A DNA stretch of 62,675 bases, counting the filler, from a bacterium (GTDB lineage: Bacteria; UBP18; UBA7526): NCBI GenBank assembly GCA_030615855.1. It is 5 parts of 5 records of this genome, joined end to end, with 100 filler letters (N's around TTAATTAATTAA, not from the genome) between each part and the next. Parts side by side here need not be neighbours in the genome. Positions count along the whole stretch, not along the records: positions 9,795 to 39,435 come from JAUWYL010000017.1; 4 more parts are not named here. The stretch is one strand, 5' to 3'. The translations under genes and the position numbers were made by a program. The notes beneath the pieces were generated by a model, which had not been told where the DNA came from, did no database searches, and saw nothing but the letters and a program-made list of their open reading frames with translations. This document shows, piece after piece, positions 9,795 to 39,435 of the stretch (position 1 is the first letter of the stretch; every line of letters starts with the position of its first letter).

Positions 9795-10134
9795 TACCTC
9801 AGAGATGATCCCAGATGAGACAATTGAAGAGAGGGTTCGCACTCTATCCAAGAGGATATACTGGACATTTGGGAAAGAGACCGTAGGGGCTGCCTTCCAT
9901 TTCCTGGATTCAAAAGAGATAGATGGACTCATCTACATCATCTCTTTTGAATGCGGCCCAGACTCTTTGTTGAAAGAGATCGTTGATGATAAGGCGCGAA
10001 AGAATAAGAAAGTAGCCTATATGTCCTTAGTAATCGATGAGCACACTGGCGAGACAGGAATGGATACCAGACTCGATGCCTTTGTTGAAATGATCAAACG
10101 ACGGCGCAATAAAAAAGTTACTAACAGTTACTAA
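9795..10134 (+). CDS. C-terminal part of an acyl-CoA dehydratase activase-related / 2-hydroxyacyl-CoA dehydratase-like protein (DUF2229, PlsA/PlsR-like), 5' truncated
   Basis: SFECGPDS...SLVIDEHTGETGMDTRLDAFVEMI is typical of this family's C-terminus. Confidence 0.7.
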
Positions 10135-10279
10135 ACCCCGATACTGTCGGGGCAGGGGTTACTAACAGTTACGAACGGTTACCAATGATTACTATGAAAG
10201 CAACCGTTAGTAACCTCTAGTAACAGCGAAGCCCTGTTACCAGATGGTACAGGGCGAAGCGTAGTAACCAATAGTAACC
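10117..10279. repeat. GTTACTAAC / TAGTAAC palindromic array with nested hairpins
   Basis: Related array at 45871-45985. Confidence 0.85.
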
Positions 10280-10289
10280 GAGGTTTTCT

Positions 10290-10943
10290 ATGGCTATCAA
10301 ATCAGTCTTTTTCCAGATCTACTGTGTTCTTTCTCTATATTTTGTCACCATAGTCGGGAGAAGGATACTTAACAGGGGAGAGGGATTTAATTATACTCGT
10401 CGTTTAGCAAGATTTATTCATCCCATCTATGCCTTTGGCCTAGTTGGCTTCATGATCTCAACCTTTATCATGGCCCATAAGAGCCCTTATCCGCTTCCCT
10501 TCTTGCCAGAATTCAACATTTCTCGCCCATTATCTCTTACCATTTCCCGATTACTCTTTCTCTTAGCTGCCGTAGTGGGCCTTCCCGGGATCGCAGGATT
10601 AGCTAATAGAAGAGTTGGCCCCTTGAGACTGATGACAGAAAAATTTGTGAAGGGAGGGATAAGGCGCTATCTGAGGAACCCCATGTCCTTGGGTGGATAT
10701 CTATTCCTCGTCGCTTATTCCATACGCTTTCTTTCCACTTATCTCCTATTTGCTACATTCATCGGCCTCATCCCTGCCCATATCTTCTATCTCAAGACCT
10801 ATGAGGAGAAGGAACTGGAACTCAAGTTCGGTGAAGAATACTTAAAGTATAAGAAAGAAGTACCCTTCCTACTACCGCGAATAAAAAAGCGCCGAAAGGC
10901 CGCAGAAAACAGAAAACGGTTAGGAGAAAACAGAAATCGGTAG
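10290..10943 (+). CDS. Isoprenylcysteine carboxylmethyltransferase / PEMT-like integral membrane methyltransferase
   Basis: Multiple TM helices; RYLRNPMSLG and EEKEL..KFGEEY..YKK.VP motifs. Confidence 0.8.
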   Translation: MAIKSVFFQIYCVLSLYFVTIVGRRILNRGEGFNYTRRLARFIHPIYAFGLVGFMISTFIMAHKSPYPLPFLPEFNISRPLSLTISRLLFLLAAVVGLPGIAGLANRRVGPLRLMTEKFVKGGIRRYLRNPMSLGGYLFLVAYSIRFLSTYLLFATFIGLIPAHIFYLKTYEEKELELKFGEEYLKYKKEVPFLLPRIKKRRKAAENRKRLGENRNR

Positions 10944-11063
10944 AGAAAACTGAGAACGGAAAACAGTTTTCAGTTCTCTGATTTCCGTACTGTTTTCAGA
11001 TTTCGGACAACAGATTTCCGTCTCTAGATTTCCCTATCCATTATCTATCACCCGGAGCATGCT

Positions 11064-11561
11064 ATGATTTCTTATCTCAAAGAAATCCTCTATAACCATC
11101 CCTACTGGGTATTTATCATTCTCCATATGACCCTGGGAAGGGGAGCCTCCATCCTCTATGGTGTCTTGAGGGGGATGAACGTTTTATATTTTCTTCCTTT
11201 AGGAGTCTTCTTCGATATGTTCCAGGTTTGGCCTCTTTATTTTCTCTATGAAACGACAGAATCCCGTATGCCTTTAATAAGAAAATTAAAGGAGAAGATG
11301 AACAGAAGAGAGAATAAATTCCTCCATTCCAGAATATTTAAGGGAGTAAAATCTTTAGGTCATCTGGGAGTGGCAGTAGTTGCTCTATTGCCAGTAAAAG
11401 GATGCGGGATGTGGAGCAGCATCTTGCTTGCCCATATCTTGAAGATCAGACGCTCCCGGGCTTATCTATTATTCTTTATAGGGAGCATTATCGGTTGTCT
11501 AATTCTGGTAGGCATTGGAGACATCATAAGAAGTATCTGGCACCAATTAGTTAGTCAATAG
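11064..11561 (+). CDS. Small multidrug-export-like membrane protein (COG2426-like)
   Basis: Four hydrophobic segments; ALLPVKGCGMWSS resembles the P..GxGxW motif. Confidence 0.6.
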   Translation: MISYLKEILYNHPYWVFIILHMTLGRGASILYGVLRGMNVLYFLPLGVFFDMFQVWPLYFLYETTESRMPLIRKLKEKMNRRENKFLHSRIFKGVKSLGHLGVAVVALLPVKGCGMWSSILLAHILKIRRSRAYLLFFIGSIIGCLILVGIGDIIRSIWHQLVSQ

Positions 11562-11761: not shown

Positions 11762-12502
11762 ATGTTAAAAAGAAGTGTATTATTGTTGTTGGTAGGGCTT
11801 TTGTTGGTAGGAGTGGGGAGTAAAGTCTGGGCACGCAAAGGATATAGTATGGTCGATGACCCCAGGATCTATCAGTATCGTAATGCCCGTGCCTCTATGA
11901 CCCAGCCCTATACCCTTTATGTGAAGAAGGTAGATGATAAGAGACCGGATTATGAAAGGCTCGCTGCCAATCCTCATTATATGTATACCCTTGATGGCTG
12001 GTGGCTAAGGGGGACTACCTTTGAAGGCCAGTTGACCGAGGTTATGACTGAAGAGTTGCGTCGTTCAAGTATCTTTCAAAAGGTTTCCAATACCCCGGAA
12101 GGAGCAGGCTATATCCTGGATACCTTGGTCAAGCACTGCTACGGAAAATACCAGAGAAGCGCTGCCTCCTACACCCCCTGGGGTGGCTACGCCCAGAACT
12201 ACATCTTCGGTGGTACCACTCTGCTCGTTACCCTGAAGAAGAAAGATGGAACCATAGTTATGCAGAAGGAGTACTCTGAGGAGGCGAAGGGAAAGGTCTC
12301 CGCCCAGAGAAGTGCGGCCTGGATGTATGTCATGCTCGGTGACTCCCTTGAGAGATGTATGGAAAGGATGCTCAAGGATGTTGACACCGCTATGGGAGGA
12401 AAGGGCTTAACCTTCGGCCAGGCTCCACCAAAGGAGAGAAAGAAAGCAAAGAAGGAGAAGAAGAAAGAAAAGAGAAAAGAGAAGAAAAAGAAAAAAGACT
12501 AA
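11762..12502 (+). CDS. Secreted hypothetical protein with Lys-rich tail
   Basis: Strong SD (AAGGAGGT), signal peptide, and KKEKKK C-terminus. Confidence 0.7.
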   Translation: MLKRSVLLLLVGLLLVGVGSKVWARKGYSMVDDPRIYQYRNARASMTQPYTLYVKKVDDKRPDYERLAANPHYMYTLDGWWLRGTTFEGQLTEVMTEELRRSSIFQKVSNTPEGAGYILDTLVKHCYGKYQRSAASYTPWGGYAQNYIFGGTTLLVTLKKKDGTIVMQKEYSEEAKGKVSAQRSAAWMYVMLGDSLERCMERMLKDVDTAMGGKGLTFGQAPPKERKKAKKEKKKEKRKEKKKKKD

Positions 12503-12598: not shown

Positions 12599-13222
12599 AT
12601 GCCGGAAAAATCAGCCACATTGGAATTCGTGAGAAGGGGGAAACTGTTAGAACTCCATTCTGGCCCAATGGTTTTTGTTCTATTGGCGGTACTGTTTTGT
12701 GCGGGTTGTGCAGGTCGTTCTGTTTATATGAGACCTACACCAGCTTTGTTGCAGCCAACCGAGGATAAGGCTTTGGTCCGTTTTATGAGACCTTCCGGCT
12801 ACGGATTTGCTATAAACTTCAATATTTTGGATGGGGAAAAGGTTATCGGAAATAGTGTGGCCAAATCTCAATTCGATTATCTCGCCGAGCCGGGGAAGCA
12901 CTTATTCATTGCCATAGCTGAAAACAAAGTTTTCCTCGAGGCTGACCTTGAGGCTGGGAAAACCTACTATGTATTTACGAAGGTCTACACCGGGGCCTGG
13001 AAAGCAAGGGTGGCTTTCATAGCTGTCAATAGGGGTTCTAAATACTGGAACCAAGTTAGAGCGTTTGAAAACAGATTAAGGAAGGTTAGTCCTGATACGA
13101 CGGCTTTGAAGACATGGGAAGACGCAAATAAGGCAAAGATTGAGAAACTTGTTTCTCAATATGAGACACAATGGAAAAATACTTATCAATGGCCCAAGTT
13201 AGCACCAGAAGATGGTAGATGA
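12599..13222 (+). CDS. Putative lipoprotein (DUF2846-like)
   Basis: SD GAAAGGAGGT; lipobox-like LFCAGC; ALVRFMRP...PGKH...LEAGKTYY. Confidence 0.65.
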   Translation: MPEKSATLEFVRRGKLLELHSGPMVFVLLAVLFCAGCAGRSVYMRPTPALLQPTEDKALVRFMRPSGYGFAINFNILDGEKVIGNSVAKSQFDYLAEPGKHLFIAIAENKVFLEADLEAGKTYYVFTKVYTGAWKARVAFIAVNRGSKYWNQVRAFENRLRKVSPDTTALKTWEDANKAKIEKLVSQYETQWKNTYQWPKLAPEDGR

Positions 13223-13674: not shown

Positions 13675-14496
13675 ATGAAAAAGTGGCTTTTGAGTTTAAT
13701 AATTTTGTTTCTTTTTCTTTTGGGGGCTTGTGCGCCGAGGTATGTCAAGCCCACTATTTACAGAGAAGCGACTTTAGAGGAGTTAATAGAATTAATTCAA
13801 AGAAGAGAAAATAGAGTAAAGACCATTAAGGCCTCTTTAAGAATGGGCTTCAGGGATTTAGAGAAGAAGGGCTCCCAGCACTGCCTGGGAGTCTTTGTTT
13901 TTGAAAAGCCAGACAGATTCAGGATAAAGGGCTATCCCCAGATGGGACTCACTCTTTTTGAGGTTGTCTCGGATGGAGAGTCTCTCTGGGTATATATCCC
14001 AAAGGAAGGAAAGGCTTACTTCACCCGCCTGCGTCCGTCTTCGCCGGACTTCGGCGGGCAGGCCCAGAATCTCAAGAAGGGAACTTCAAAGACCGATTTC
14101 AATCTTCAGGATTTGAGGAGTGCTTTTTTGGTTGCAGAGGTACTTAATCAACCGGATGTCAATAGGTTCTTAGAGAAGAGAGAAAAAGAGTATATTCTCT
14201 ACCTTGTAAAGAAGAGGCTTTTAGAGAAAGTTTGGGTCGAAAGAAGTGATTTTTTGGTGACCAAGATTGAAAGGTTCGATGAGGATGGTTCTTTAGCCTT
14301 AGAAGTCTCTTTTAATAAATATCAGAAAATAAATAGAATCGATTTTCCAGAGAAAGTGAGAATTTATAACCCAAAGGAGAAGAGGATACTAACACTACTC
14401 ATCCAAAAAGTAAGACTCAATGAAGCTATCAAGCCCGAAGTCTTTCAATTTAAGGTTCCAAAAGGAATAGAAATCATCAGTACAGATAAAAAGTGA
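13675..14496 (+). CDS. LolA/LolB-fold lipoprotein (DUF4292-like)
   Basis: Lipobox LLGAC; FEKPDRFRI, SDGESLWVYIP and a C-terminal N....FQFKVP.G typical of the LolA fold. Confidence 0.75.
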   Translation: MKKWLLSLIILFLFLLGACAPRYVKPTIYREATLEELIELIQRRENRVKTIKASLRMGFRDLEKKGSQHCLGVFVFEKPDRFRIKGYPQMGLTLFEVVSDGESLWVYIPKEGKAYFTRLRPSSPDFGGQAQNLKKGTSKTDFNLQDLRSAFLVAEVLNQPDVNRFLEKREKEYILYLVKKRLLEKVWVERSDFLVTKIERFDEDGSLALEVSFNKYQKINRIDFPEKVRIYNPKEKRILTLLIQKVRLNEAIKPEVFQFKVPKGIEIISTDKK

Positions 14497-14685: not shown

Positions 14686-15588
14686 ATGCCTAAACATCCT
14701 TTGGATAAGTATTTTCTTTATCGATTTGTTCGCTTTATGTCCTTTACTTTACCTCTGGGCATTGGCTACCTATTAGCAACCATAACTGGGATCATCGCTT
14801 ATTCCCTATCAAGAAAGAATAGAAGGGCAATAATCTCCAATCTAACTCAGGTTTTGGGTAAAGAAGTGAGTAGAAGAAGAATTTGTTCCTTATCCCGCAA
14901 TACTTTCTGTAATTATGCCAAGTATATTGTCGATTACTTCAGGTTTCCGCACATCAACAAAAATGACTGGAAGAGGATCATTCCTCAGTATGAGGGGGCA
15001 GATTTTATTGATAACACCCTGAAGAAGGGAAAAGGTCTTATGCTCTTGACCGCTCACATAGGGAACTGGGAGTTAGGAAGCCTACTATTCAATATATTGG
15101 GCTATTCCATGAATGTGGTTACCTTGGTTGATGAAAATTTGAAGATTGATGAGGTAAGGGAAAGATGGAGAAGAAGCCGGGGAATAAAGTCCTTGACTGT
15201 TGGTAATTCGATAACTGCGGCCAAGAATATCGCAGATGCTTTAGCAAAGAATGAAATCGTGGCCATGCTTGGGGATCGGGCAACCAAGACCAACAGGATG
15301 AAGATAAAGTTCTTCGGTAAAGAGACCTACTTTCCTACGGGAGCGATAATCTTAAGTCTATTAACTGGAGCGCCCATCGTTCCCGGTTTCGTCCTTTATA
15401 AGGGAAAAGGGAAATACTATGGAGTAGCAGAAGAGCCCATCTATGCTAAGGATACTGGCAATAGAGAGAAGGATATAAAAGAGACTCTGGAGAAAATAAT
15501 TGAGGTTTTCGAAAAGTATATCCGCAAATATCCAGATCAATGGTATAATTTTTATCCCTTCTGGCAAAACGCAGATGACCGCAGATAA
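14686..15588 (+). CDS. LpxL/HtrB-family (lipid A / lysophospholipid) acyltransferase
   Basis: TAHIGNWE, LGDR, FFG...FPTG and YPDQWYNF motifs. Confidence 0.88.
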   Translation: MPKHPLDKYFLYRFVRFMSFTLPLGIGYLLATITGIIAYSLSRKNRRAIISNLTQVLGKEVSRRRICSLSRNTFCNYAKYIVDYFRFPHINKNDWKRIIPQYEGADFIDNTLKKGKGLMLLTAHIGNWELGSLLFNILGYSMNVVTLVDENLKIDEVRERWRRSRGIKSLTVGNSITAAKNIADALAKNEIVAMLGDRATKTNRMKIKFFGKETYFPTGAIILSLLTGAPIVPGFVLYKGKGKYYGVAEEPIYAKDTGNREKDIKETLEKIIEVFEKYIRKYPDQWYNFYPFWQNADDRR

Positions 15589-15721: not shown

Positions 15722-16378
15722 ATGAGGAGGACATTGTTGCTTCTGTTGGCAGTGATCCTTTTGGGGAGTTCTGTTTGGGCGGGGAATGACCTGGATAGTA
15801 TCTTGAAGAAGATGGATAAGAGGCAGAGGGGGATGAAAGACCTTAAGGCCTCATTCACCCAAGAGAAGATCTTGGAATTATTAGAAGAGAAGTTAATTTC
15901 TCAAGGGAAGATGAAATATAGAAAGCCGGATAGGATGTCCTGGGAATATTTCGAACCCGATCCTCTTTTAATGATTATTAAGGGAAAAAGAATGTGGCTC
16001 TATTATCCAGATATGAAGGTGGCCGAGAAGTATGATTTAGAAAGAGCAGGGGAAACCTTGGGGCTCTTCGTGGGCTTTGGAAAGTCTATGGAATACTTGA
16101 AGAAGAATTATCAGATCAGCCTCCTTGAAAAAAAGAAGGATTTTTATTCTTTGGAACTCATTCCCAAAAGAGAAGAGGAATTAAGATATTTATCCAAAAT
16201 AGTATTATGGATTGACACTAAAGAATACTGGCCAGTCAAAACTAAAATATATGAACCAAATGGAGATACCACCTTGATAGAATTTAGGAATATTGAACTC
16301 AATACTAAGATTCCAGACTCAGAGTTCGAGTTCAAGGTTCCCAAAGGGGTGGAGGTAGTAGAGCCCCTCAAGGAATGA
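15722..16378 (+). CDS. lolA: LolA-family outer-membrane lipoprotein carrier
   Basis: Signal peptide; ASFTQ, KPDRMSWEY..P and FEFKVPKGVEV motifs. Confidence 0.8.
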   Translation: MRRTLLLLLAVILLGSSVWAGNDLDSILKKMDKRQRGMKDLKASFTQEKILELLEEKLISQGKMKYRKPDRMSWEYFEPDPLLMIIKGKRMWLYYPDMKVAEKYDLERAGETLGLFVGFGKSMEYLKKNYQISLLEKKKDFYSLELIPKREEELRYLSKIVLWIDTKEYWPVKTKIYEPNGDTTLIEFRNIELNTKIPDSEFEFKVPKGVEVVEPLKE

Positions 16379-16466: not shown

Positions 16467-17303
16467 ATGGCTTTGAAGAGCGTGATTGTCTATTTTTCTC
16501 AGACGGGGAATACAGAGAAGGTAGCCCGAGCCATTGCCACAGGAATAAAAAGTACAAATAATTCCTGCACCCTAACCACTTTAAAAGAGGTGATATTAAA
16601 GAAATTAAGGGATTATGATTTAATCGGTATCGGCACCCCAGTCTTCTACTTCCAAGAGCCATGTAATGTAAGGAATTTTATCGCGAGACTCTCTTTCTTA
16701 AAAGATAAGTTGAGTTTTGTTTTCTGTACCCATGGTGGCCAGGATGCTAATACTTTAGCCCGCATGGCGAAAGGACTGAAGGAAAGAGGTTTGTTAGTTT
16801 TAGGGGGATTAAGTACCAGGGGTTATGATTCCTTTCAGCCCTATGTTGAGTTTGATTATAGCAAGGGCCATCCAGATGAAAAGGACCTAAAAGAAGCAGA
16901 AGAGTTTGGCCAAAAGATGGTCAAGAACTATGGATTAGTTAAAGAAAAGAATCAATTAGATATCCTTCCCGAATTTAAGTTTAGATTTTCATTACTTCAT
17001 CTCGCCTCTCTGTGGCTAACGGAGAAGAGAGTAAATAGGCACCTACCAAAGATAGAAGTAGATAGAGAAAATTGCACCAAATGTGGCAAGTGTGCCGAAA
17101 TATGTCCTTCAGAAGCAATTGAACTCAATCCCTATCCTGTACGTAAAGGAGACTGTATCAGATGTTATTATTGCGAGAAGGTATGTCCTCAAGGAGCAAT
17201 AGTTGTAAACTGGGGACCAACTAAGAGGCTCTTAGGTTACTTCAGAATATGCGATCGGGCTATAAAAGCCCCCTTTAAAATATTCAGAGCAAAAGGAGAT
17301 TGA
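16467..17303 (+). CDS. EFR1-type flavodoxin-ferredoxin fusion
   Basis: YFSQTGNT flavodoxin N-terminus plus two C-terminal CxxCxxCxxxCP motifs. Confidence 0.88.
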   Translation: MALKSVIVYFSQTGNTEKVARAIATGIKSTNNSCTLTTLKEVILKKLRDYDLIGIGTPVFYFQEPCNVRNFIARLSFLKDKLSFVFCTHGGQDANTLARMAKGLKERGLLVLGGLSTRGYDSFQPYVEFDYSKGHPDEKDLKEAEEFGQKMVKNYGLVKEKNQLDILPEFKFRFSLLHLASLWLTEKRVNRHLPKIEVDRENCTKCGKCAEICPSEAIELNPYPVRKGDCIRCYYCEKVCPQGAIVVNWGPTKRLLGYFRICDRAIKAPFKIFRAKGD

Positions 17304-18569: not shown

Positions 18570-18988
18570 AGTATCATGAAATTGAGATAAGGGTAAGGTT
18601 TAATGAGGTGGACCAATGGGGGATGGTCTGGCATGGCCACTATATCAGTTACTTCGAGATGGGAAGGATTAATCTCGCCCGAGGCTTCGACCTAACTCCT
18701 GCTGATTTCGTTAAGATGGGCTATACTGCTCCGGTAGTTGAATTAAAATGCAATTATAAAGAGCCGGCAAGAAATGATGAGGAACTTATAATCCGCACTA
18801 CCTTAGAGAAACCAACTAAGGCTGCTCTTACCTTTAAGTATCAAATCTTAAGAAAGAAGGATAAGAAGTTATTAGTCAAAGGTGAGACGACCCAGGTTCT
18901 CCTTGATAAAAAAGGCGAGTTAGTTTTGATTATTCCCGAAGAAATAAAGAAAAGGATTAATAAATTACTTGCCTACCTGGAAAAATGA
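18566..18988 (+). CDS. Acyl-CoA/ACP thioesterase (4HBT/YbgC hot-dog fold)
   Basis: VRFNEVDQWGMVWHGHY..YFE.GR motif. Confidence 0.88.
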   Translation: MKYHEIEIRVRFNEVDQWGMVWHGHYISYFEMGRINLARGFDLTPADFVKMGYTAPVVELKCNYKEPARNDEELIIRTTLEKPTKAALTFKYQILRKKDKKLLVKGETTQVLLDKKGELVLIIPEEIKKRINKLLAYLEK

Positions 18989-29219: not shown

Positions 29220-29747
29220 ATGGAGAAAGAACTCATTCTTCTCGGCCTTCTGAAGGAAGGGCCAAGGCATGGCTATGAATTAAAGAGAATAGTCGATGAG
29301 AAGATATCCACTTTTGCCCCTATCAGTGCTGGTTCTATTTACTATACTTTGAAGGGATTGGCAAAGGATGGCTTGGTAAGTATGACCAGGAAGAGAAGGG
29401 GCAAGTATCCAGAGAAAGAGGTCTATAGAATAACAACGAAGGGAGAGAAGAGACTTAGGGAATTACTTGAGGAGACCTGCTTCAATATCAAGAGGCTTTA
29501 CCGGAGTATGGATATCGTTCTATACTTTATGAATTATCTCAAGCCAAAAGAAGTGATTAGAGGGCTAAGAAATAGGATTGGGCAGATCAAAGGAATAAGA
29601 GAGGAAACCAAAGGGATCTATATGAAGATAAGGAGGGAGAGATATCCTTATTACATTCAGGCCATTGCCCAGAGGAATATAAGGTTTATGGATAAGGAAA
29701 TAGAATGGATGGAGGACTTCATAAAAGAGATTAGGAGGAAATCGTGA
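29220..29747 (+). CDS. PadR family transcriptional regulator
   Basis: LLGLL..GP.HGYEL, GSIYYTL and Y.IT.KG motifs; AGGAGG SD before ATG 29220. Confidence 0.92.
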   Translation: MEKELILLGLLKEGPRHGYELKRIVDEKISTFAPISAGSIYYTLKGLAKDGLVSMTRKRRGKYPEKEVYRITTKGEKRLRELLEETCFNIKRLYRSMDIVLYFMNYLKPKEVIRGLRNRIGQIKGIREETKGIYMKIRRERYPYYIQAIAQRNIRFMDKEIEWMEDFIKEIRRKS

Positions 29748-31405: not shown

Positions 31406-32119
31406 ATGAAGATTTTGGGAATCTGTGGGACACATAAGAGGCAGGATCAGGAGTCTTCCAGTGAATGGCTGTTGAAGGAGGCCCTGAAGGCCGCAGAGAA
31501 GAAGGGAGCAGAGACGAAATCTATAAGACTCATTAACTATAAGATTACTCCCTGCTTAGCCTGTAATAAGTGTCGGATTGGGGAGAAGTGTCCTTTATTG
31601 GAAGACCCCAATGATGATGTCAAAAAGATCTTTGATATGATTGATGAGGCGGATGCTCTAATCTTCTCCTCCCCTACCTATGCCTATCAGCAGCCGGCGG
31701 TCACCTTAAGCCTTTTCCACCGAGTCATTCCCTTGCACGAGATCGAGAGGTCTAAGGAGTGGGGACTGGATATCCGGGCCTATAAGTGCAATCCCTTCCA
31801 TGGGAAACCGGTGGGGAATATGGCGGTCGGTGCTGGATTGGGGATGGAGGGAGCCCTCTATTATCTCTTCCATGTCTTGAAGGCCCTGGGTGCTACCTCT
31901 GTTATCTGTACCGGGATAAGTCTATTGGAGGCAGAGACCAAGAACCTCTTCGCCGCTGCCCCCATGGATCCAGCGATAAAGAAACTCTTGGAGATGCCGG
32001 GGACCAAACTTGAAGAGAATGAGTGCGCTATCGAACTCGCCCGGGCAGTGGGTAAGAGAGTAGTGGATGTCTATCATTCAGAGGTCTTCCAGTCACTCAA
32101 GGATGTTTTGAAATACTAG
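31406..32119 (+). CDS. Iron-sulfur flavoprotein / NADPH-dependent FMN reductase family
   Basis: MKILGICG, CLACNKC....C and ADALIFSSPTY motifs. Confidence 0.85.
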   Translation: MKILGICGTHKRQDQESSSEWLLKEALKAAEKKGAETKSIRLINYKITPCLACNKCRIGEKCPLLEDPNDDVKKIFDMIDEADALIFSSPTYAYQQPAVTLSLFHRVIPLHEIERSKEWGLDIRAYKCNPFHGKPVGNMAVGAGLGMEGALYYLFHVLKALGATSVICTGISLLEAETKNLFAAAPMDPAIKKLLEMPGTKLEENECAIELARAVGKRVVDVYHSEVFQSLKDVLKY

Positions 32120-32266: not shown

Positions 32267-32512
32267 ATGGATTGGGACGAGAAGGCTTATGAGGATTTTA
32301 AAAAGTTGATCGGCCAGGCGCCGGTCTTTTCGAGAAGGACGGCAGAGAGATTAGTCTCTCAGAAGGCGGAGGAGAATGCTAAGGCCAGGGGTTCAAATAG
32401 GATCGAGGAAGAGGATATGATAAGGGCTTTCTTAAGCGAGACCCCAGGTCCCTTCAAGAGACGGATGTTCGCCGATATGGAGAGGTTCGGCATTGATTAT
32501 AAGAAGTATTAG
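32267..32512 (+). CDS. Small helical protein, DUF2621/PCP-reductase C-terminal-like
   Basis: SD AAGGAGG; W...A.......P.F.R..A......AE..A..RG...IEEED...AF; homologous to the C-terminus of 34486-35934. Confidence 0.75.
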   Translation: MDWDEKAYEDFKKLIGQAPVFSRRTAERLVSQKAEENAKARGSNRIEEEDMIRAFLSETPGPFKRRMFADMERFGIDYKKY

Positions 32513-32595: not shown

Positions 32596-32628
32596 AGACT
32601 TTCGCATTCGCGCGAATACGAAAGTGCT
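32596..32628. repeat. 33-bp palindrome, copy 1
   Basis: AGACTTTCGCATTCGCGCGAATACGAAAGTGCT. Confidence 0.9.
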
Positions 32629-32650
32629 ATATGGGAGGTATCAATATAAA

Positions 32651-33865
32651 ATGAATAAGGAGCCGCGGCCAAGAGTTGCCATAGTAGGAGGAGGATTGAG
32701 CGGATTAGCTGCTGCCTATTTCTTGAAGAAGAAGGGGACAGAGGTCACGGTCTATGAGAAAACCTCTGAAGTGGGAGGGAAGTTAGCCCGAGTAATAGTG
32801 GATGGAGTCTCCATCGATACTGGTGCTTTACTCTATTCCAAGGAACTCAATCCCAACTTTGATGTCTTAATAAATGAATTAGGAGTAGAGTGCGAAAGGA
32901 GATATCTGAATACCTTTGCTCTTCAAATCGAGGATAAGATTACTGCCTTGAATCCTTTAGCCCTAGCAAAGTCGAGACTCTTTTCCTTTGGAGAATTCTT
33001 GAAATGGAGGAAGGTGAAGAAGTTCATCAATTCCTTAAGTTTTGATCTGGATGAGGTGGACGAAAGGATTGATAAACTACACCAGATATCCTTAGAGAAA
33101 TATTTAAGGGACGTTGGTTTCCGGCAGGAACTCATCGACTCCTTCTTTCGGGCTTTCTGCTCCTTCGCCTATGTGGATGGAGCGAAAGATTTGGCTGCTG
33201 ATTTCGGCCTCTTCCTCTTAGCCTTCCCCCTGAAGACTATCATGGCTCCGGTTAAAGGGATGAGCGAGGTAGCTCTAGAACTGAAGAGAAGGTTGGGAGA
33301 TAGTGTAAGACTGAATACCAGAGTAGTTAATATATCCCAGAATCTGGACAGAACCTTTACCGTAAGAACGGAAAAAGAAGGAAAAGTTTCTGAAGAGACC
33401 TTTGACTATTGTATCTTAGCAACAGGAAGGAGAAATTTTAAGAATATCTTCCCAGAAGTTGACTTTGAGATAGAGATTACCAAGGCCCGGGGAGTGATTC
33501 TGGAATCAGACTGCCCTACTTATAAGAAGTATAACGTGCTCATCATCTCCAAGTATAAGAATGAGCATGGGGTTCAGGGAGGGAAGATTAAGCACCTGCC
33601 GGATGGAAGGAGTTTCTATGGCATGATGCTCTATCGACCGGATGCTGACCTGGGGAAAGTATTCGGGAAGCACAAGGTCCATCACAGGTTCGGCTGGTCA
33701 CCAGCCATGGCCTGGATGTCTCCGGGATGCAAAATACCGGATGTCAAGACTAACATTTCTAAATGCTTTGTCATCGGTGACTTCGACCACTATCCCGGCG
33801 TTGAGCCCTGCATCTTCGCCGCCCAAAAGGCAGTGAAATCCATCTTAAAAGAAACAACATCTTAA
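32651..33865 (+). CDS. FAD-dependent oxidoreductase (protoporphyrinogen oxidase / amine oxidase-like)
   Basis: VAIVGGGLSGLAAAY, E....VGGK and DTGA motifs; ATG 32651 preferred as start. Confidence 0.8.
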   Translation: MNKEPRPRVAIVGGGLSGLAAAYFLKKKGTEVTVYEKTSEVGGKLARVIVDGVSIDTGALLYSKELNPNFDVLINELGVECERRYLNTFALQIEDKITALNPLALAKSRLFSFGEFLKWRKVKKFINSLSFDLDEVDERIDKLHQISLEKYLRDVGFRQELIDSFFRAFCSFAYVDGAKDLAADFGLFLLAFPLKTIMAPVKGMSEVALELKRRLGDSVRLNTRVVNISQNLDRTFTVRTEKEGKVSEETFDYCILATGRRNFKNIFPEVDFEIEITKARGVILESDCPTYKKYNVLIISKYKNEHGVQGGKIKHLPDGRSFYGMMLYRPDADLGKVFGKHKVHHRFGWSPAMAWMSPGCKIPDVKTNISKCFVIGDFDHYPGVEPCIFAAQKAVKSILKETTS

Positions 33866-33924: not shown

Positions 33925-33959
33925 TTAACATATCATAATTCAGATTTAAGGAGGTTTTG

Positions 33960-34445
33960 ATGAAGATTTTGATTGTTTATTATTCCAAGACGGGGAAGAC
34001 GAAGGAGATTGCCCATACTATGGCCAATGAATTGGCGGATGGGAACGAGGTGAAGTTAAGAAAAATAAGGATGAAGGACGAGAGAGGTCTTCTGGCTACT
34101 TATCTTTTGGATACCAAAAAGGCATTAAGAAGAGAGAAACCGGAGATTGAAGTGCTCGACTTTGACCATAAGGAGTATGATCTCATCATTTTAGGAACCC
34201 CAGTATGGAGTGCCAATACCGCCCCAGCCATAAATACTTATCTTGAGAAAAGTGACTTCCGGAATAAGAAGGTAGCCCTCTTCGTTACCCTGCGCCTGAT
34301 GGGAGGAGAGAAGGTGGTGGGGATTTTAACCGAAGAGATAGAAAAGAAAGGAGGAAAGGTCATCGATTTTATCATCATCAAGACCGGTCTGTGTCACAAG
34401 AAAAAAATGCTTCAGGAAGCCCGCCGATTCGCAAGTAAACTTTGA
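33960..34445 (+). CDS. Flavodoxin
   Basis: YYSKTGKT and YDLIILGTPVW motifs. Confidence 0.85.
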   Translation: MKILIVYYSKTGKTKEIAHTMANELADGNEVKLRKIRMKDERGLLATYLLDTKKALRREKPEIEVLDFDHKEYDLIILGTPVWSANTAPAINTYLEKSDFRNKKVALFVTLRLMGGEKVVGILTEEIEKKGGKVIDFIIIKTGLCHKKKMLQEARRFASKL

Positions 34446-34485: not shown

Positions 34486-35934
34486 ATGAAACTATCAATA
34501 CCTTGTAATTGGGATATGGAGTTAATAAAAGCAACAAAAGACTTGCCTGTCTATGATTTTTATGGTGCTATAGCCACCACGCCGATCGGACATGGTAGAC
34601 CGGCGCTCATTATTCCTGATGTGGATGAGGATTTCGTAGCAGAATATATTAAAAAGGTTCATTCTACAAACCGAAAATTTTCTTATGTACTTAATGCTAC
34701 CAGTATGGGTAATTTAGAGTTCGATCCCAAGTTTCATAGGAAAATACTAAACTATCTTCACTGGTTAGTTGATATAGGGGTAGATGCGGTTCATGTATCA
34801 ATTCCGTACCTGATGGAAATAATTATACATCAATTTCCTAAATTGAAGGTAACCACATCAGTGATGGCCCATACTTGTTCTGTTGATATGGCGAAAGAAT
34901 TTGAAAGGCTGGGTGTATCAGCAATAAATCTGAGTTTGGAAATTAACAGAGATTTTAAAGCTATAAGGGCAATAAGAAAGGCGGTAAAAATTCCTCTGGT
35001 ATTAATTCCTAACTTAGCAGACTTACATCAATGTCCCTACAGGCATTATCATTATAGTATACTTGGTTTTACTTCCCAAACCCATAGTAAGGATAAAGCT
35101 CGAAGATACTGGGCTATGCAGCCCTGCAAGATGTATTGTAATGATCGGAAATTAAGTGAGCCGTTAGAAATTTTAAAATCATGCTTTATCAGACCTGAAG
35201 ACTTAAAATTTTATGAAAAGGAAGGGATAGATATTTTTAAGTTGTCAGGAAGGCATCAAAATACTGAATGGATAATGAAAGTAGCAAAAGCATATGCTAA
35301 CCGGGAGTATAAAGGAAATCTTGTGGATATCATAGATGCCATTATAATGAACAAAAAGGATATTAGAGAGTTTCATCCGGAGTTTATAACTGAATCAGAT
35401 CCAGAAATCCAGGCAGTTCCTGAATTTTATAGCTGGAGCAGATTAGATCTTAGTGCGTCTGATGTTGTTAACATAGATAATAGCAAATTAGACGGATTTA
35501 TTGATCATTTTGTGAATAATGGTTGCAACCCTTCTATTGATTGTGATGAGTGTGGCTATTGCGCAAAATGGGTTGATAAAGCAGTTAAAATAAACCCTGA
35601 TTTGTCTAAACAATATTTAGAAGCCATAAAGAAACATCGCAATGCGTTACTGATGAGTAAATTTGCAAAAGAAGTTGAGGCGCTGGAGTGGGATAAGAAA
35701 GTGAGGATTATTTTTGAAAATATGATAAGTTCAATCCCGCAGGTGGTTAGAAAAGTTGCCAAAACTGCAGTTTCTGTAAATGCAGAGAAACTTGCCAAGG
35801 AAAGAGGCGCTTTTATTGTGGAGGAAGAAGATTTGGCCAAAGCTTTTCTGGAAAGTTGCCCTTCTGAATTTCAGGACCAGATGGGAGAGAAGTTAAAATC
35901 CCACGGGATTGATATAGCTAAATTTAGAGATTAA
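34486..35934 (+). CDS. U32-family (Fe-S hydroxylase/peptidase-like) protein with C-terminal DUF2621-like domain
   Basis: GHGRP, YVLN, FIRPEDL..Y...G...FKLSGR motifs; Cys-rich C..C..C.YC; C-terminal ~85 aa resembles ORF 32267. Confidence 0.85.
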   Translation: MKLSIPCNWDMELIKATKDLPVYDFYGAIATTPIGHGRPALIIPDVDEDFVAEYIKKVHSTNRKFSYVLNATSMGNLEFDPKFHRKILNYLHWLVDIGVDAVHVSIPYLMEIIIHQFPKLKVTTSVMAHTCSVDMAKEFERLGVSAINLSLEINRDFKAIRAIRKAVKIPLVLIPNLADLHQCPYRHYHYSILGFTSQTHSKDKARRYWAMQPCKMYCNDRKLSEPLEILKSCFIRPEDLKFYEKEGIDIFKLSGRHQNTEWIMKVAKAYANREYKGNLVDIIDAIIMNKKDIREFHPEFITESDPEIQAVPEFYSWSRLDLSASDVVNIDNSKLDGFIDHFVNNGCNPSIDCDECGYCAKWVDKAVKINPDLSKQYLEAIKKHRNALLMSKFAKEVEALEWDKKVRIIFENMISSIPQVVRKVAKTAVSVNAEKLAKERGAFIVEEEDLAKAFLESCPSEFQDQMGEKLKSHGIDIAKFRD

Positions 35935-36116: not shown

Positions 36117-36118
36117 GT

Positions 36119-36147
36119 TTGACCTATTTTGTCTAATATGGTATATT
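36119..36147 (+). promoter_or_regulatory. Sigma70-type promoter for the MMPL gene
   Basis: TTGACC-17 bp-TATATT with extended -10 TG. Confidence 0.6.
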
Positions 36148-36172
36148 ACCTGAAGAAGAGAGGTCATAAATT

Positions 36173-38725
36173 GTGAGGAAAAGAATTCTCAAGAAGATTG
36201 CTCGGATTTCATATCATAGATACAGATTAGTTTTAAGTATCGCTTTAATTCTGACCATTGTTTCACTTCTCTTATCCTTCCGTCTGGAACTAAAGACGGA
36301 TATCATCAATCTCCTTCCTCCAGAATCCAAGGCAGCCAAGGTATTCTGTCGGGCCATCTCATCCTTCGGCACTTTTGATTACCTTATCGTCTTCATCCGT
36401 ACAACGGATACTCAACGCACTTCGTTTGCCTTGAGATATTCCACGGATAAAAACACGGATATTAAGCGATTAGAGAATTTTAGTGATTCCTTTGCCTATG
36501 AATTAGGAAAGTCCGACCTTATTGAAGGGATAGACTATAAGATTTCGGAAGAGATAAAGAGGTTCTTTCAGGAGGAGTTATTAAAGCGTCCTTACCTTTA
36601 CCTTTCTTCAAGCGATATTAGAAAGTTGAAGACTAAACTGAGCGATGAGGCCATCTATCGTCAGATAAAGGAGAACAAGCGCCTCTTAGCCAGCCCCATC
36701 TCATTCGCTACAAAGGACTTCATCCAGAAAGACCCCTTTAATTTACGAAGCATATTTAAAGGCTATATCCTGCAGCAGAAAGGCCCCTATAACCTCGACC
36801 TCAGTAGAGGCTATTACCTCTCTCCTGATCAGAAGGCCCTCCTGATGATTATCAAGCCCAAGAGGCCGCCCACGGATATTGATTTTGATAAGAAGTTGCT
36901 AAAAACCATTAAGGAGGCAGAGAAGAAGGCCTATAAAGAAGGAGTAAGAGTAGATTATACCGGTGGCTACATCATGGCCCTGGATGATGAGAGAATGATT
37001 AAGAGGGACATCATACTTACCCTTTCCCTCGCCTTCTTTTTAGTCCTCACTCTATTCTTTCTTACTTTTAGAAGGAAGGAGACCTTCTTCTTTGTGAGCG
37101 TTCCCCTTTTAATGGGTCTGGCCTGGACGGTGGGGATCGCTTCTCTATATCCCAGGCATCTCAATATGGTCACCTTCGGCTTCTTTCCCATCCTAATCGG
37201 CTTAGGAGTGGATTATGCCATCCACATCTACAACCGCTACTTAGAAGAGAAGAGAAAAGGCAAGGATACCTTGAGCTCATTGGAGATTACTCTCTCTCAG
37301 ACAGGGGAGGGGATACTGACCGGTGCTCTGACTACTGCGGTTGCCTTTTATTCTTTAACCTTCACTAAATTCCGGGGACTATCTGAGTTAGGATTCCTTT
37401 CCGGGACAGGGATCTTAGCCTGCCTCCTGTCCATGTTCTTCATCCTTCCGGCTATTTTGAGCTGGCAAGTCAAGAGGAAGAGATTTGTACCGAAACTCTT
37501 GCATCCCTTTGGATTGGAAAAGATTTCTAAGATTCTTTTAAAGTCTCCCAAGATTACCTTAATCGTTGCTATCTTTATCACTTTAATTTTGGGCTTAAGT
37601 GCTTTAGGGATCACCTTTGATAGTGACTTTCGGAACTTGAGACCAAAGGAGACTCCAGCCTTCAAGGTTCGGAATGAGATGGGGAAGAAGTTTGGCTCTC
37701 CTTCTGATCCCTTGATGATTATCGCTTCTGGAAAAAACAAAGAAGAAGTTCTTCAGGTAAATGAGAGAATAACCCAGAGAATAGAGGAATTAAAAAAAGA
37801 AGGGAGAATGGAATATTATCAATCCCCAATTAGTTTTCTTCCTTCAAAGAAGAGGGCTCGTGAGAATATTGAAGAGTTAAGAAGGTTTGACTTTGAGAGC
37901 ATAATTACTACCTTTAAAGAAGCCCTCTTAAAGAATGGCTTCAGAATAGAGGCTTACCAAAGATATATAGATGAAATAAGAAATTTAGAGGCGAGGCTAA
38001 AAGGACCCGTCTCTATTTCAGGGAAGGATCTGGAGAAGATGACCAAACGCTATCTTATCGAAGACGAAGAAGGATTCAAGACTCTTACCCTGGCTTATCC
38101 TGTGAAGAAGATCCTTTCTCCAAAAGAAGTAGATGAGTTCGAAGAGAGAATAAAAGGAAACGAGAAGGGGATTAAGATTACTGGGGTGGGGATTATTGCC
38201 AGTGAACTCAAGAGGTTAATCACTAAGGATTTTATCTTAGCTACAGTCCTTGCCTTTACTGGGGTCTTCATTATGCTTTTAATCCACTTTAGAAGAATAA
38301 AGATAGTAATTCTTGCTCTCATTCCCCTGATCTGTGGTATAATCTGGATGTTAGGGATTATGAGGCTTATCGGCCTTAGGATGAACTTCATCAATATCGT
38401 AGTTACTCCTCTCATCTTAGGAATTGGGATAGACGATGGGATCCATATCATCCACCGCTACTTAGAAAAAGGACTTGTCCCCCGAAGCCTTGGCGTAGGG
38501 GGGGTAGAAGATGCCATTCATCATACGGGAAGGGCGGTGGTCATGACCTCTCTCACTACTATGGTGGGATTTGGGAGTCTGGTCTTTGCTCAGTATAGAG
38601 GATTGGCCACCATGGGAGCCCTTGCCCTTCTTGGCGTAGGCCTATGTCTCATCGCTTCTTTAACCATTTTGCCAGTATTACTTAAGATAATGGAAAACAC
38701 GAAACGACACGAACTAGAAAAATGA
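36173..38725 (+). CDS. MMPL/RND family lipid exporter (HpnN-like)
   Basis: Two repeats with GLGVDYAIH / GIGIDDGIH motifs and large periplasmic loops. Confidence 0.92.
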   Translation: MRKRILKKIARISYHRYRLVLSIALILTIVSLLLSFRLELKTDIINLLPPESKAAKVFCRAISSFGTFDYLIVFIRTTDTQRTSFALRYSTDKNTDIKRLENFSDSFAYELGKSDLIEGIDYKISEEIKRFFQEELLKRPYLYLSSSDIRKLKTKLSDEAIYRQIKENKRLLASPISFATKDFIQKDPFNLRSIFKGYILQQKGPYNLDLSRGYYLSPDQKALLMIIKPKRPPTDIDFDKKLLKTIKEAEKKAYKEGVRVDYTGGYIMALDDERMIKRDIILTLSLAFFLVLTLFFLTFRRKETFFFVSVPLLMGLAWTVGIASLYPRHLNMVTFGFFPILIGLGVDYAIHIYNRYLEEKRKGKDTLSSLEITLSQTGEGILTGALTTAVAFYSLTFTKFRGLSELGFLSGTGILACLLSMFFILPAILSWQVKRKRFVPKLLHPFGLEKISKILLKSPKITLIVAIFITLILGLSALGITFDSDFRNLRPKETPAFKVRNEMGKKFGSPSDPLMIIASGKNKEEVLQVNERITQRIEELKKEGRMEYYQSPISFLPSKKRARENIEELRRFDFESIITTFKEALLKNGFRIEAYQRYIDEIRNLEARLKGPVSISGKDLEKMTKRYLIEDEEGFKTLTLAYPVKKILSPKEVDEFEERIKGNEKGIKITGVGIIASELKRLITKDFILATVLAFTGVFIMLLIHFRRIKIVILALIPLICGIIWMLGIMRLIGLRMNFINIVVTPLILGIGIDDGIHIIHRYLEKGLVPRSLGVGGVEDAIHHTGRAVVMTSLTTMVGFGSLVFAQYRGLATMGALALLGVGLCLIASLTILPVLLKIMENTKRHELEK

Positions 38726-38750
38726 AAAGTTTAAGGTAACTAAGACACGA

Positions 38751-38807
38751 ATTACAGGATGCGCTTCGCTGGCATCCTAGAGAGCATAAATAATTAAGCA
38801 TTGGCAC
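38751..38807 (+). repeat. 57-bp dispersed element; second copy at 44063-44119 (-)
   Basis: ATTACAGGATGCGCTTCGCTGGCATCC.AGAGAGCATAAATAATTAAGCATTG.CAC. Confidence 0.88.
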
Positions 38808-38839
38808 GAATATCTGAAGAAAGGGTGAAGGGAATAAAA

Positions 38840-39435
38840 ATGAAGAGAATAATAGTAATTTTAGTTCTGATGATGGGAATAACGACAGTAGGATGGGCTC
38901 AGGATTATGAGTTTGTCAAGAAGTGGGGGGATTGCGGAAGGTGGGATGGCGCCTTCCAGTATCCCATGGGTATTACCCTGGATGCTCGGGGGAATATCTA
39001 TGTAGCAGATAAGCAGAATAACTCTTTTCAGAAGTTTGATTCCCAAGGCAATTTTAGTGCTCGATGGCCCAGGGAATCCGAACTCGGTGCTGAACTATAC
39101 TACCCCTATGATTTAGCAGTAGATATGCTGGGTTATATCTATGTTGTCAATTCCTATGGGCACTCTGTTAAGAAATTCACTTCCCAGGGGAAGTTCGTTG
39201 CCAGATGGGGTACGGAAGGCCAGGGAGATGGTCAGTTCTACTATCCCTTTGGCATAGATGTTGATTCCTGGGGGAATATCTACGTTGCCGACACTAAGAA
39301 TAATAGAATCCAGAAGTTTGATTCCCAGGGGAAGTTCCTTCTCTCCTTTGGGGAAGAGGGGAAGAAGGAAGGGGAGTTTAGAGTTCCTTCTGATCTTGCT
39401 GTTAATAGATTGGGAAATATCTATGTCGTTGACTC
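38840..39435 (+). CDS. Secreted NHL-repeat beta-propeller protein, 3' truncated
   Basis: Signal peptide; repeated P.GI..D..GNIYVAD..N.RIQKFD units. Confidence 0.88.

Follow-up and report, generated by a model that had tools for sequence, protein, structure and literature searches.

The biosynthesis of ladderane lipids is a long-standing question whose candidate gene clusters have resisted experiment, and the radical S-adenosylmethionine (SAM) family TIGR04072 is the usual candidate for cyclobutane formation. Among described systems, the closest to the locus reported here are the extended type II fatty acid synthesis (FASII) clusters of K. stuttgartiensis, as outlined by Rattray et al., 2009 (PMC2649909). 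The anammox cluster is reported to encode a ketosynthase/chain length factor (KS/CLF) heterodimer (bioRxiv 10.64898/2026.05.19.726425), and the aryl-polyene (APE) cluster apeA-R of E. coli CFT073 is described with an acyltransferase, thioesterase, LolA-like and resistance-nodulation-division (RND) export set (PMC8253772). Class-B radical SAM enzymes acting on lipids are reported to methylate, form rings and desaturate (PMC13459092; bioRxiv 10.1101/2025.10.20.683597). We analysed positions 9795-39435 (JAUWYL010000017.1) of a 62,675-nt stretch of DNA, called the window below, from a bacterium of the candidate phylum UBP18 (assembly GCA_030615855.1). These positions are probably the middle of a ~40-gene, 42-45 kb cluster that would build, tailor and export a specialised envelope lipid without oxygen, and that would be related to, but larger than, the orphan extended FASII cluster known as 'ladderane-type'. 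That cluster type, itself an orphan, is known already. What is new is the host, whose candidate phylum numbers five species with very small assemblies; of 1.3 Mb, the unit occupies ~42-45 kb (~3%). Also new are several accessory genes unexpectedly near to those of the anammox locus, with the TIGR04072 enzyme absent, and the addition of a PlsA-like module, a U32 enzyme of a largely Asgard-labelled family and a C45 enzyme.

Genes were called and the open reading frames (ORFs), small ones included, were scanned with Pfam and NCBIfam profiles, with a score over the curated cut-off taken as family membership. The stretch holds 27 ORFs (9805-39435), all 27 on the + strand, as an earlier annotation made from the DNA alone (the initial annotation) had nearly stated, and each gene family named there is present. 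The features, several of which carry a domain binding flavin adenine dinucleotide (FAD), are as follows.

9795..10134, +, 3'-terminal part of a DUF2229/HGD-D gene truncated at the contig start ('Red1'-type, PlsA-like; Pfam HGD-D 22.1 bits, E 1.3e-4, under cut-off)
10290..10943, +, PEMT/ICMT-type membrane methyltransferase (PF04191 28 bits vs cut-off 25; four hydrophobic segments)
11064..11561, +, small membrane protein, Sm_multidrug_ex (PF06695 57.2 bits)
11762..12502, +, unk246, exported protein (signal-peptide-like N-terminus; no Pfam or NCBIfam match)
12599..13222, +, unk207, lipoprotein shared with the anammox locus (lipobox-like N-terminus; no Pfam or NCBIfam match)
13675..14496, +, LolA-like/DUF4292 lipoprotein (PF17131 44.3 bits, PF14125 43.9 bits; lipobox-like N-terminus)
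14686..15588, +, LpxL/PatA-type acyltransferase (PF03279 116.8 bits; under every NCBIfam equivalog cut-off)
15722..16378, +, LolA-family periplasmic carrier (PF03548 94.6 bits; signal peptide)
16467..17303, +, flavodoxin-ferredoxin fusion of the EFR1 family, a likely electron donor (Flavodoxin_5 and Fer4; NF038196 131.6 bits vs 75)
17304..18569, +, B12 radical SAM 1 (rSAM1), paralogue of rSAM3 (Radical_SAM 62.5 bits, B12-binding 59 bits)
18566..18988, +, hot-dog acyl-CoA/acyl carrier protein (ACP) thioesterase, YbgC/FadM type (4HBT_2 50.1 bits; TIGR00051 74.5 bits vs 68.7)
18985..20502, +, CrtI-family FAD enzyme 1, CrtI1 (Amino_oxidase 82.2 bits; crtI_fam 196.1 bits vs cut-off 238.1)
20499..21965, +, CrtI-family FAD enzyme 2, CrtI2 (Amino_oxidase 79.1 bits)
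22042..23205, +, exported C45 (N-terminal nucleophile, Ntn) acyltransferase/hydrolase (PF03417 88.8 bits; NF040521 218.6 bits vs 85; signal peptide)
23298..24845, +, B12 radical SAM 2 (rSAM2), BchE-like, paralogue of rSAM5 (BchE model 271.7 bits vs 481)
25443..26738, +, B12 radical SAM 3 (rSAM3; B12-binding and Radical_SAM Pfam domains)
26920..27342, +, exported FMN_bind domain protein (PF04205 45.7 bits; signal peptide)
27379..28953, +, B12 radical SAM 4 (rSAM4), TIGR04190-like (238.9 bits vs cut-off 500)
29202..29747, +, PadR-family regulator (PF03551 63 bits)
29744..31273, +, B12 radical SAM 5 (rSAM5), BchE-like (BchE model 254.7 bits vs cut-off 481)
31406..32119, +, FMN reductase-type flavoprotein (PF03358 74.4 bits)
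32267..32512, +, PCP_red-like protein of 81 aa, paralogous to the C-terminal domain of U32 (PF08369 23.1 bits, under cut-off 32.5)
32624..33865, +, amine-oxidase/protoporphyrinogen oxidase (PPO)-like FAD enzyme (PF01593 86.1 bits; HpnE model 56.9 bits vs cut-off 283)
33957..34445, +, flavodoxin (PF12682 45.4 bits)
34486..35934, +, U32-family iron-sulfur (Fe-S) enzyme with a PCP_red/DUF2621-like C-terminal domain (PF01136 54.6 bits vs cut-off 22.4)
36173..38725, +, MMPL/HpnN-like RND exporter (PF03176 148.5 bits; HpnN model 294.2 bits vs cut-off 751.85)
38801..39435, +, NHL-repeat protein, exported, truncated where the contig stops (PF01436 86.4 bits)

The boundaries of this stretch are those of an assembly. 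The window is interrupted at four sites by a six-frame stop linker, N44-TTAATTAATTAA-N44 (9695-9794, 39436-39535, 43854-43953 and 59679-59778), and is therefore a concatenation of five contigs from a metagenome-assembled genome (MAG; 1-9694, 9795-39435, 39536-43853, 43954-59678 and 59779-62675), with 9795-39435 being one entire contig of 29,641 bp, equal in length to the contig on record for its C45 protein. Genes are truncated at the window joints (MgsA 8930-9661, FtsH 42363-43802, NHL), and RNase Y, FolD, Dxs, CdaA, FolP and FtsH lie on other contigs and are therefore no true neighbours of the cluster. The 29,641-bp contig opens within the DUF2229/HGD-D gene and closes within the NHL-repeat gene. 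Unitigs of the probable source run cover 19436-39435 with 0-1 differences, one of them extending 500 nt beyond the contig end, and the contig breaks at the NHL gene because read joints fold back inside the NHL repeats. Read depth was also raised in the gaps near 25.2, 32.2 and 38.75 kb, which are joined to one another by contig joints.

No ketosynthase or PP-binding domain was found by Pfam scans in the ORFs or small ORFs tested of 9795-39435. The flanking sequence was read from five species genomes of the same phylum (G001-G005, referred to as sister genomes), each a fragmentary MAG with 0.8-1.3 Mb assembled. A single contig of G005 (C3) encodes MMPL (79% identity to that of the window), an NHL remnant, a class I methyltransferase (MT), FabD, FabG, ACP, FabZ and KS. 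The order on G001:C43 is MT, a FabD-type transferase, FabG, an 87-aa ACP, FabZ, KS1, KS2 and an Omp85/PD40 protein. The last 210 bases of G001:C74 encode MT residues 7-76 and the start of C43 encodes residues 79-290, so that one MT is split over two contigs, which therefore adjoin each other, short of two codons. The Cys-His-His triad is intact in KS1, which passed the FabF cut-off (501.7 vs 493.75 bits); in KS2 the catalytic Cys and the two His are gone. A dedicated ACP, an active KS and a triad-less KS were thus found in one cluster in the sister genomes, not in the window itself. Besides a housekeeping FabF, every sister genome has two adjacent KS genes at another place; in G001 these are KS1 and KS2 on C43. 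The best PDB sequence match of KS2 was entry 9s5h, which contains two different KS chains. The cluster FabZ scored 134 bits to canonical FabZ structures vs 89-95 bits to entries 7qv0 and 8ayb-8ayi, which we take to be amxFabZ. No enoyl reductase was present among the annotated cluster ORFs. An AmxMT1-type methyltransferase was considered for the downstream MT and rejected, the protein matching only generic class I methyltransferases in the PDB.

Since the FAS core lies directly past MMPL-NHL in sister genomes, the missing KS and ACP would be a contig-end artefact, true of this fragment alone, and we infer from two of these genomes that a FAS core also lies beyond the contig end in the window's own organism. 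The 'no KS or ACP' of the initial annotation thus stood for 9795-39435 but not for the locus, as the core adjoins MMPL-NHL in G005 and G001. Its suggestion that the genes may tailor finished lipids was not borne out, with MT-FabD-FabG-ACP-FabZ-KS following MMPL-NHL in G005 and the MT split across contigs in G001. The same annotation had held that a ladderane-type FAS core in the flanking sequence would speak against its proposal, and such a core was found there in the sister genomes. Concatenated MAG contigs can give a false impression of a cluster without its core genes.

The locus was then compared with that of anammox bacteria. TIGR04072 was over cut-off in 22 of the 401 Planctomycetota sampled, and three TIGR04072-bearing genomes carry hydrazine synthase alpha, each at >1500 bits (G042, 1576 bits); these genomes are therefore from anammox bacteria. 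Cluster proteins were searched by tblastn (E 1e-6) against 45 kb of anammox locus sequence. The G042 locus is co-directional and located around the TIGR04072 match (G042:C1, ~3.712-3.737 Mb). Fourteen gene families are common to the ~42-45 kb unit and the anammox locus, with the following matches in G042.

LpxL-type acyltransferase, 40% identity
LolA, 29% identity
unk207 lipoprotein, 70% identity over 181 aa
rSAM3-type radical SAM, 44% identity over 431 aa
ATP-grasp, 51-59% identity
DUF3473 deacetylase, 45% identity
KS (two KS/short-KS pairs there), 41% identity
dead KS, 26% identity
TIGR04072 radical SAM, 27% identity to rSAM2 (in addition to the fourteen)
FabG, 50% identity
ACP, 40% identity
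FabZ, 43% identity
class I MT, next to MMPL, 41% identity
MMPL, 28% identity
CrtI-like (phytoene dehydrogenase (PDH)-like) enzyme, next to MMPL, 30% identity

The gene order of G042 from the deacetylase to the CrtI-like gene was also found in a 20-kb stretch of G142. The homology is gene for gene beyond generic FAS parts (unk207, ATP-grasp, deacetylase, rSAM3-type, MT and LpxL-type), and the phytoene-dehydrogenase-like FAD enzyme is represented in the cluster by two CrtI-family genes. By gene content, locus tags aside, the G042 locus would be of the extended FASII cluster type outlined by Rattray et al., 2009 (PMC2649909). Searches of the 45 kb at E 1e-6 gave no match to the PlsA-like module, PEMT, thioesterase, C45, rSAM4 or close rSAM2/5 types, nor to FMN_bind, PadR, FMN reductase, PCP_red, the amine-oxidase-type enzyme, the flavodoxins, U32, NHL or FabD. 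The link to anammox ladderane clusters that the initial annotation suspected is therefore stronger than could be seen from the window, with 14 families in common with the locus of a hydrazine-synthase-bearing genome. Its 'new pathway' was too strong a term for what appears to be a larger version of a cluster type under discussion, as an orphan, since the work of Rattray et al., 2009 (PMC2649909), and its idea of an oxygen-independent cluster for lipid-type tailoring and export is supported.

The cluster was recovered in sister genomes, in line with the expectation that its genes co-occur as a unit. In G001 the full order from the small membrane protein to NHL is kept at 71-99% identity. The order in G002 is that of G001, but with an unrelated insert of 4.8 kb between rSAM4 and PadR. 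This insert (G002:C20; L035 8221-12558) encodes a 1134-aa TSP3-repeat/helix-hairpin-helix protein and a 295-aa ORF and was seen in this species alone. Reduced versions were found in G004, which is without CrtI1 and C45, and in G005, which is without rSAM1 and has C45 as a remnant only. A CrtI1 homologue is present in 4/5 genomes of the phylum, and U32 is present in G001 and G002 and was not found in G003-G005. In G005:C6 the cluster's FMN reductase is succeeded by a plain radical SAM, then an archaemetzincin-type M54 peptidase and ApbE (L054 6365-9051), and then MreB, MreC and PBP2, with no PCP_red-to-U32 block at this syntenic place. ApbE is the flavin transferase that the exported FMN_bind protein would need for loading. 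With C45 as the anchor, 20 loci were retrieved from species genomes, of which only 2 carry the cluster, and the C45 homologues at 24-42% identity (Nitrospirota, Planctomycetota and others) do not have it alongside. By these comparisons the unit is real and conserved, yet modular.

At the upstream edge the contig opens within a module of PlsA-like genes. The first ORF is the last 109 residues of a 334-aa HGD-D protein, with 93% identity to the C-terminus of HGD334 in G001 and 91% identity to a 344-aa DUF2229 protein of G005. After PurA, G001:C27 and G004:C101 share the order ATP-grasp, DUF3473 deacetylase, HGD368, BcrAD activase, HGD331, HGD363, HGD334 and PEMT, coding for a DUF2229 protein of 368 aa, a BcrAD/BadFG activase of 319 aa and DUF2229/HGD-D proteins of 331, 363 and 334 aa. 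The DUF3473 polysaccharide-deacetylase-type protein scored 262.9 bits to TIGR03006 vs a cut-off of 276.2. With PEMT as the anchor, 34 loci were retrieved from metagenome contigs, four of them close relatives, and in 4/4 of these an HGD gene or its 3' end lies just before PEMT (whole genes in three). Two other, unrelated metagenome contigs have a BchE-like B12 radical SAM just before a PEMT-type gene (L064 1569-3534 and L067 8474-10441; radical SAM 31-32% identity to rSAM2, methyltransferase 34% to PEMT), and the two genes may be a recurring pair. Each sister genome also encodes a long fused activase-activase-reductase-reductase protein, of 1402 aa in G001. The cluster activase has a 42% identity to the Act part of this Act1-Act2-Red1-Red2 protein, the two Red1-type proteins 28-29% and the two Red2-type proteins 22-28% (22-29% for the four HGD proteins overall), so the separate genes of the split module encode one protein of Act type and two each of the Red1 and Red2 types. 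None of these proteins matched a curated family. The activase-activase-reductase-reductase layout is described for plasmalogen synthase PlsA and ester reductase Ger (PMC12838417, PMC13159169), the latter in T. maritima (PMC13159169), and plasmalogen synthases are described in L. cremoris, a Lactococcus other than L. lactis (PMC12838417). DUF2229 matches were obtained in the control genomes T. maritima and L. lactis.

Within the contig, three pairs of paralogues (rSAM1/rSAM3 50%, rSAM2/rSAM5 46% and CrtI1/CrtI2 49% identity) and the match of the 81-aa PCP_red-like ORF to U32 residues ~400-481 (37% identity, E 1.6e-15) indicate that the cluster is enlarged partly through duplication. The 81-aa protein is 91% conserved in G001 and G002. 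Seven products (unk246, unk207, LolA-like, LolA, C45, FMN_bind and NHL) have signal-peptide or lipobox-like N-termini, and a large part of the system therefore acts outside the cytoplasm. The thioesterase ORF overlaps each neighbour by 4 nt. The top PDB match of CrtI1 was phytoene dehydrogenase 4dgk (103.6 bits), and the NCBIfam matches of the PEMT/ICMT-type protein to MddA, LmtA and ICMT were weak (~27 bits each). No sequence match in the PDB was found for unk246 or unk207. The latter has 1572 representatives at E ≤ 0.001, and its predicted model (predicted local distance difference test, pLDDT, 92.4) is a beta-sandwich with helices, for which Foldseek gave nothing at E ≤ 0.001 and a wide structural search gave common beta-sandwich matches alone (Z ≤ 7.1). 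Across the whole window there were 0 Rfam matches at gathering thresholds. Spacers between the cluster genes hold short word repeats (TTGTTCAATG-like, ACGGTAAAC-like and ATCTGTG-like), for example at 14622-14665, 15674-15717, 16388-16417, 26912-26955, 27348-27377 and 32119-32148.

All five B12-binding plus Radical_SAM proteins have the CxxxCxxC motif (5/5). Scores to BchE (TIGR02026, cut-off 481.35) were 271.7 bits for rSAM2, 254.7 for rSAM5, 128.4 for rSAM1, 88.8 for rSAM3 and 47.6 for rSAM4; the best scores to HpnR (150.2 bits, cut-off 650) and HpnJ (147.4 bits, cut-off 577.6) were both from rSAM2, and HpnP was absent from the models that matched. The best TIGR04072 (rSAM_ladder_B12) score was 108.9 bits among the five window proteins vs a cut-off of 360, and none of the five sister genomes has a protein over this cut-off (best 159 bits). 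Homologues of rSAM1 at 52-58% identity occur in Nitrospirota, Bacillota and other phyla, with 4-8 copies of this type in two Nitrospirota genomes. In two non-anammox Planctomycetota, a relative at 33% identity is encoded next to the TIGR04072 enzyme, along with an acyltransferase, an ACP and a KS pair. In the protein atlas, rSAM4 and the amine-oxidase-type enzyme had generic family neighbours only. A tetrapyrrole role, to which BchE-like, PCP_red-like and PPO-like genes might point, was rejected, as the scores are far under the cut-offs and the cluster has no other tetrapyrrole gene. Further B12-type radical SAM genes are common in these organisms, with 5-10 per sister genome by TIGR04190 search, including arrays outside the cluster (seven matches in ~12 kb of G002:C21, six in ~11 kb of G003:C57 and others in G001:C42). 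In the window, a sixth B12-binding radical SAM (61127-62572) is located on the separate 2.9-kb contig 59779-62675 (- strand), together with a class I methyltransferase (60363-61121) and a 208-aa ORF without a family, where G+C falls to 0.36.

The U32 protein contains a U32 domain with conserved cysteines fit for Fe-S clusters: C183, C218, C347, C353, C356 and C359 are invariant in 23 homologues, with a C-x5-C-x2-C-x2-C motif. UbiU/UbiV, TrhP and RlhA are U32 oxygen-independent hydroxylases. The protein scored 30.1 bits to the TrhP model NF011996 (cut-off 534) and had no match to the UbiU, UbiV and RlhA models at E ≤ 0.001. There are 222 relatives at E ≤ 1e-10, and among the 120 listed the named ones are Asgard archaeal (Prometh-, Loki-, Hermod-, Hel-, Thor-, Hod- and Sigyn-archaeal labels; 35-58% identity) except for one Deferrimicrobium, with one further relative labelled marine sediment metagenome. 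In an archaeal phylum with small genomes, 3 of the 201 genomes gave weak matches at 30-36% identity, and no close homologue was found in the three anammox genomes (none in G042; E 2e-6 to 3e-7 in the other two). The make-up of the family suggests that genes may have passed between Asgard archaea of sediments and this phylum of bacteria.

LpxC is present in 5/5 sister genomes and an outer membrane is therefore expected. PF03279 (LpxL-type) genes number 5-8 per sister genome (~1 Mb), and since the cluster copy is the most divergent it would be no ordinary lipid A acyltransferase. A role as an ordinary lipid A LpxL was set aside, the sister genomes holding 4-7 other, higher-scoring PF03279 genes. 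Three or four LpxL-type paralogues form tandem arrays in G002:C11 (3300-7097), G001:C80 (651-4487), G004:C191 and G005:C15, and in G002 and G005 such an array and LpxC are on one contig.

Taken as one system, these genes could act in a single pathway that starts with extension of a chain on the dedicated ACP by the KS/dead-KS pair. Two CrtI-type flavoenzymes and the amine-oxidase-type enzyme would introduce or shift double bonds, and the five class-B radical SAMs would methylate, cyclise or desaturate unactivated carbons using electrons that may come from the EFR1 flavodoxin-ferredoxin, the flavodoxin and the FMN reductase. The U32 Fe-S enzyme may carry out an O2-free hydroxylation, and the PlsA-like reductases could apply ketyl-radical chemistry to an ester or hydroxyacyl thioester. 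The YbgC-type thioesterase and the LpxL-type acyltransferase would then transfer the chain to an acceptor in the envelope. Delivery of the product to the outer membrane would fall to MMPL, the two LolA-type carriers and the other exported proteins. This scheme of chain building, envelope transfer and export follows the logic proposed for aryl-polyene lipids, as set out in PMC8253772, and for anammox clusters.

Several points weigh against this reading as a single ladderane-type cluster. The cluster genes are described as having no direct experimental tie to ladderanes (bioRxiv 10.64898/2026.05.19.726425; PMC13459092), and neither these genes nor those of the anammox locus have a known product, transcript or enzyme activity. 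The five radical SAMs all stay under the curated family cut-offs, and the reactions given to them above are for this reason guesses; the rSAM1 type is moreover widespread, and multi-copy in genomes in which no lipid-related context was seen. All five sister genomes are fragmentary MAGs (0.8-1.3 Mb), and it is from them that the FAS core and the upstream module are known, the window's own contig stopping in NHL. The radical SAM block of G005 ends in housekeeping genes with MMPL and the FAS core on another contig, so parts of the cluster can be separated. The block of PCP_red, amine-oxidase-type enzyme, flavodoxin and U32 is missing at the syntenic place in G005, with U32 not found in G003-G005, and may be an independent add-on.

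That last block is central to a different account, in which the locus is a mosaic of two or three adjoining systems: a ladderane-type core with its exporter, and a separate redox module (PCP_red, amine-oxidase-type enzyme, flavodoxin, U32 and perhaps some radical SAMs) acting on another hydrophobic molecule, for instance an isoprenoid or quinone-like cofactor. We regard this as rather unlikely. The U32 block occurs in the window and in G001 and G002, is absent from the syntenic place in G005 and was not found in G003-G005. This distribution would fit a separate module, as would the Asgard archaeal labels of the named U32 relatives (bar one Deferrimicrobium and one metagenome label), the lack of a close U32 homologue in the three anammox genomes and the fact that C45 and rSAM1 likewise vary between species. 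Against this, the block lies between the radical SAMs and MMPL on the same strand with short gaps and at 80-99% identity in G001 and G002, a PCP_red-like ORF adjoins an rSAM1 homologue in a Nitrospirota genome, and no quinone or tetrapyrrole pathway gene was seen in the cluster. It is also unlikely that the cluster is without chain-building enzymes of its own and tailors finished fatty acyl, hopanoid or ether lipids made elsewhere. The lack of KS and ACP in 9795-39435 and the housekeeping genes, in place of a FAS core, after the G005 radical SAM block agree with such a role, and the known class-B enzymes HpnP/R, Grs, Gmm and Ted are described as using finished lipids (PMC13459092; bioRxiv 10.1101/2025.10.20.683597). 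However, the stretch is a contig cut at both ends, the FAS core is directly past MMPL-NHL in G005 and over a 2-residue contig gap in G001, and in the homologous anammox locus KS, ACP, FabG and FabZ are interspersed among the same genes for tailoring and export.

A very improbable product is a polyene of pigment type, aryl-polyene or flexirubin-like, that is attached to the outer membrane and whose conjugated chain would come from KS/CLF, ketoreductase and dehydratase working without an enoyl reductase. No enoyl reductase was among the annotated cluster ORFs, and distant C45 homologues (~33%) are mostly from Chryseobacterium, Dyadobacter and other Bacteroidota, such genera being makers of flexirubin. 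The KS/dead-KS pair, thioesterase, acyltransferase, LolA-like protein and RND transporter also match the apeA-R set as listed in PMC8253772. However, the Pfam scans of the 27 window, 7 upstream and 8 downstream ORFs found no acyl-ACP synthetase or other adenylating/aryl-starter enzyme, DUF3261 or COG4648-type protein, although two window ORFs are family-less and a divergent form is possible. The gene-for-gene match is to the anammox FASII-type locus, and nothing in the APE gene list given in PMC8253772 corresponds to the five B12 radical SAMs or the PlsA-type module. The lipid-building cluster of ladderane type remains the preferred explanation.

A more far-reaching proposal, which we put forward as doubtful, is that a tiny-genome sediment phylum outside the anammox bacteria devotes ~3% of its assembled DNA to an enlarged ladderane-type pathway. 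The 14-family core would be ancestral machinery for an ACP-bound chain remodelled by radical SAMs, and five other B12 radical SAMs, two split PlsA-type reductases and an Asgard-type U32 hydroxylase would replace TIGR04072, leading to a polymethylated or polycyclic, ether-linked, hydroxylated outer-membrane lipid. If true, this would be an unrecognised class of sedimentary biomarker, and comparison of the clusters would single out genes specific for cyclobutane formation. Much of the anammox locus is kept in an unrelated phylum, some parts at 50-70% identity, which makes a natural comparison set. The cluster is without the usual cyclobutane candidate, and its added modules have chemical precedents in ether formation, anaerobic hydroxylation and C-methylation. 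The comparison narrows down which genes are generic to the lipid type and which are possibly ladderane-specific, and supplies an enzyme list for anaerobic expression.

Set beside the described systems, the cluster resembles each in part. With APE clusters it shares a KS/CLF pair, ketoreductase, dehydratase, SAM methyltransferase, thioesterase, acyltransferase, LolA-like protein and RND transporter, whereas the apeA-R list, as given in PMC8253772, is without radical SAM, CrtI-type, U32 or PlsA-type genes. The upstream module has putative Act, Red1 and Red2 domain kinds as in PlsA/Ger, judged against the sister genome's own fused protein, but its genes are split and duplicated, with reductase parts at only 22-29% identity. 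With the U32 hydroxylases the U32 protein has in common the U32 domain, Fe-S-fit cysteines, flavodoxins alongside and an anaerobic setting, and differs from them in the extra C-terminal PCP_red/DUF2621-like domain and the free-standing paralogue of that domain. The anammox locus has two KS pairs vs one pair here and a TIGR04072 radical SAM vs 0/5 in the sister genomes. Compared with Cluster I of K. stuttgartiensis (KustE3603-3608: amxACP, amxFabZ, amxFabF2/amxFabFmut, a PDH-like enzyme and a B12 radical SAM), the cluster here is far larger, its radical SAMs are of other subfamilies and its FabZ is nearer to canonical FabZ. The two have in common a FabZ, an ACP of their own and the pairing of an active with a triad-less KS, with CrtI/PDH-like and B12 radical SAM partners, as Cluster I is described in bioRxiv 10.64898/2026.05.19.726425.

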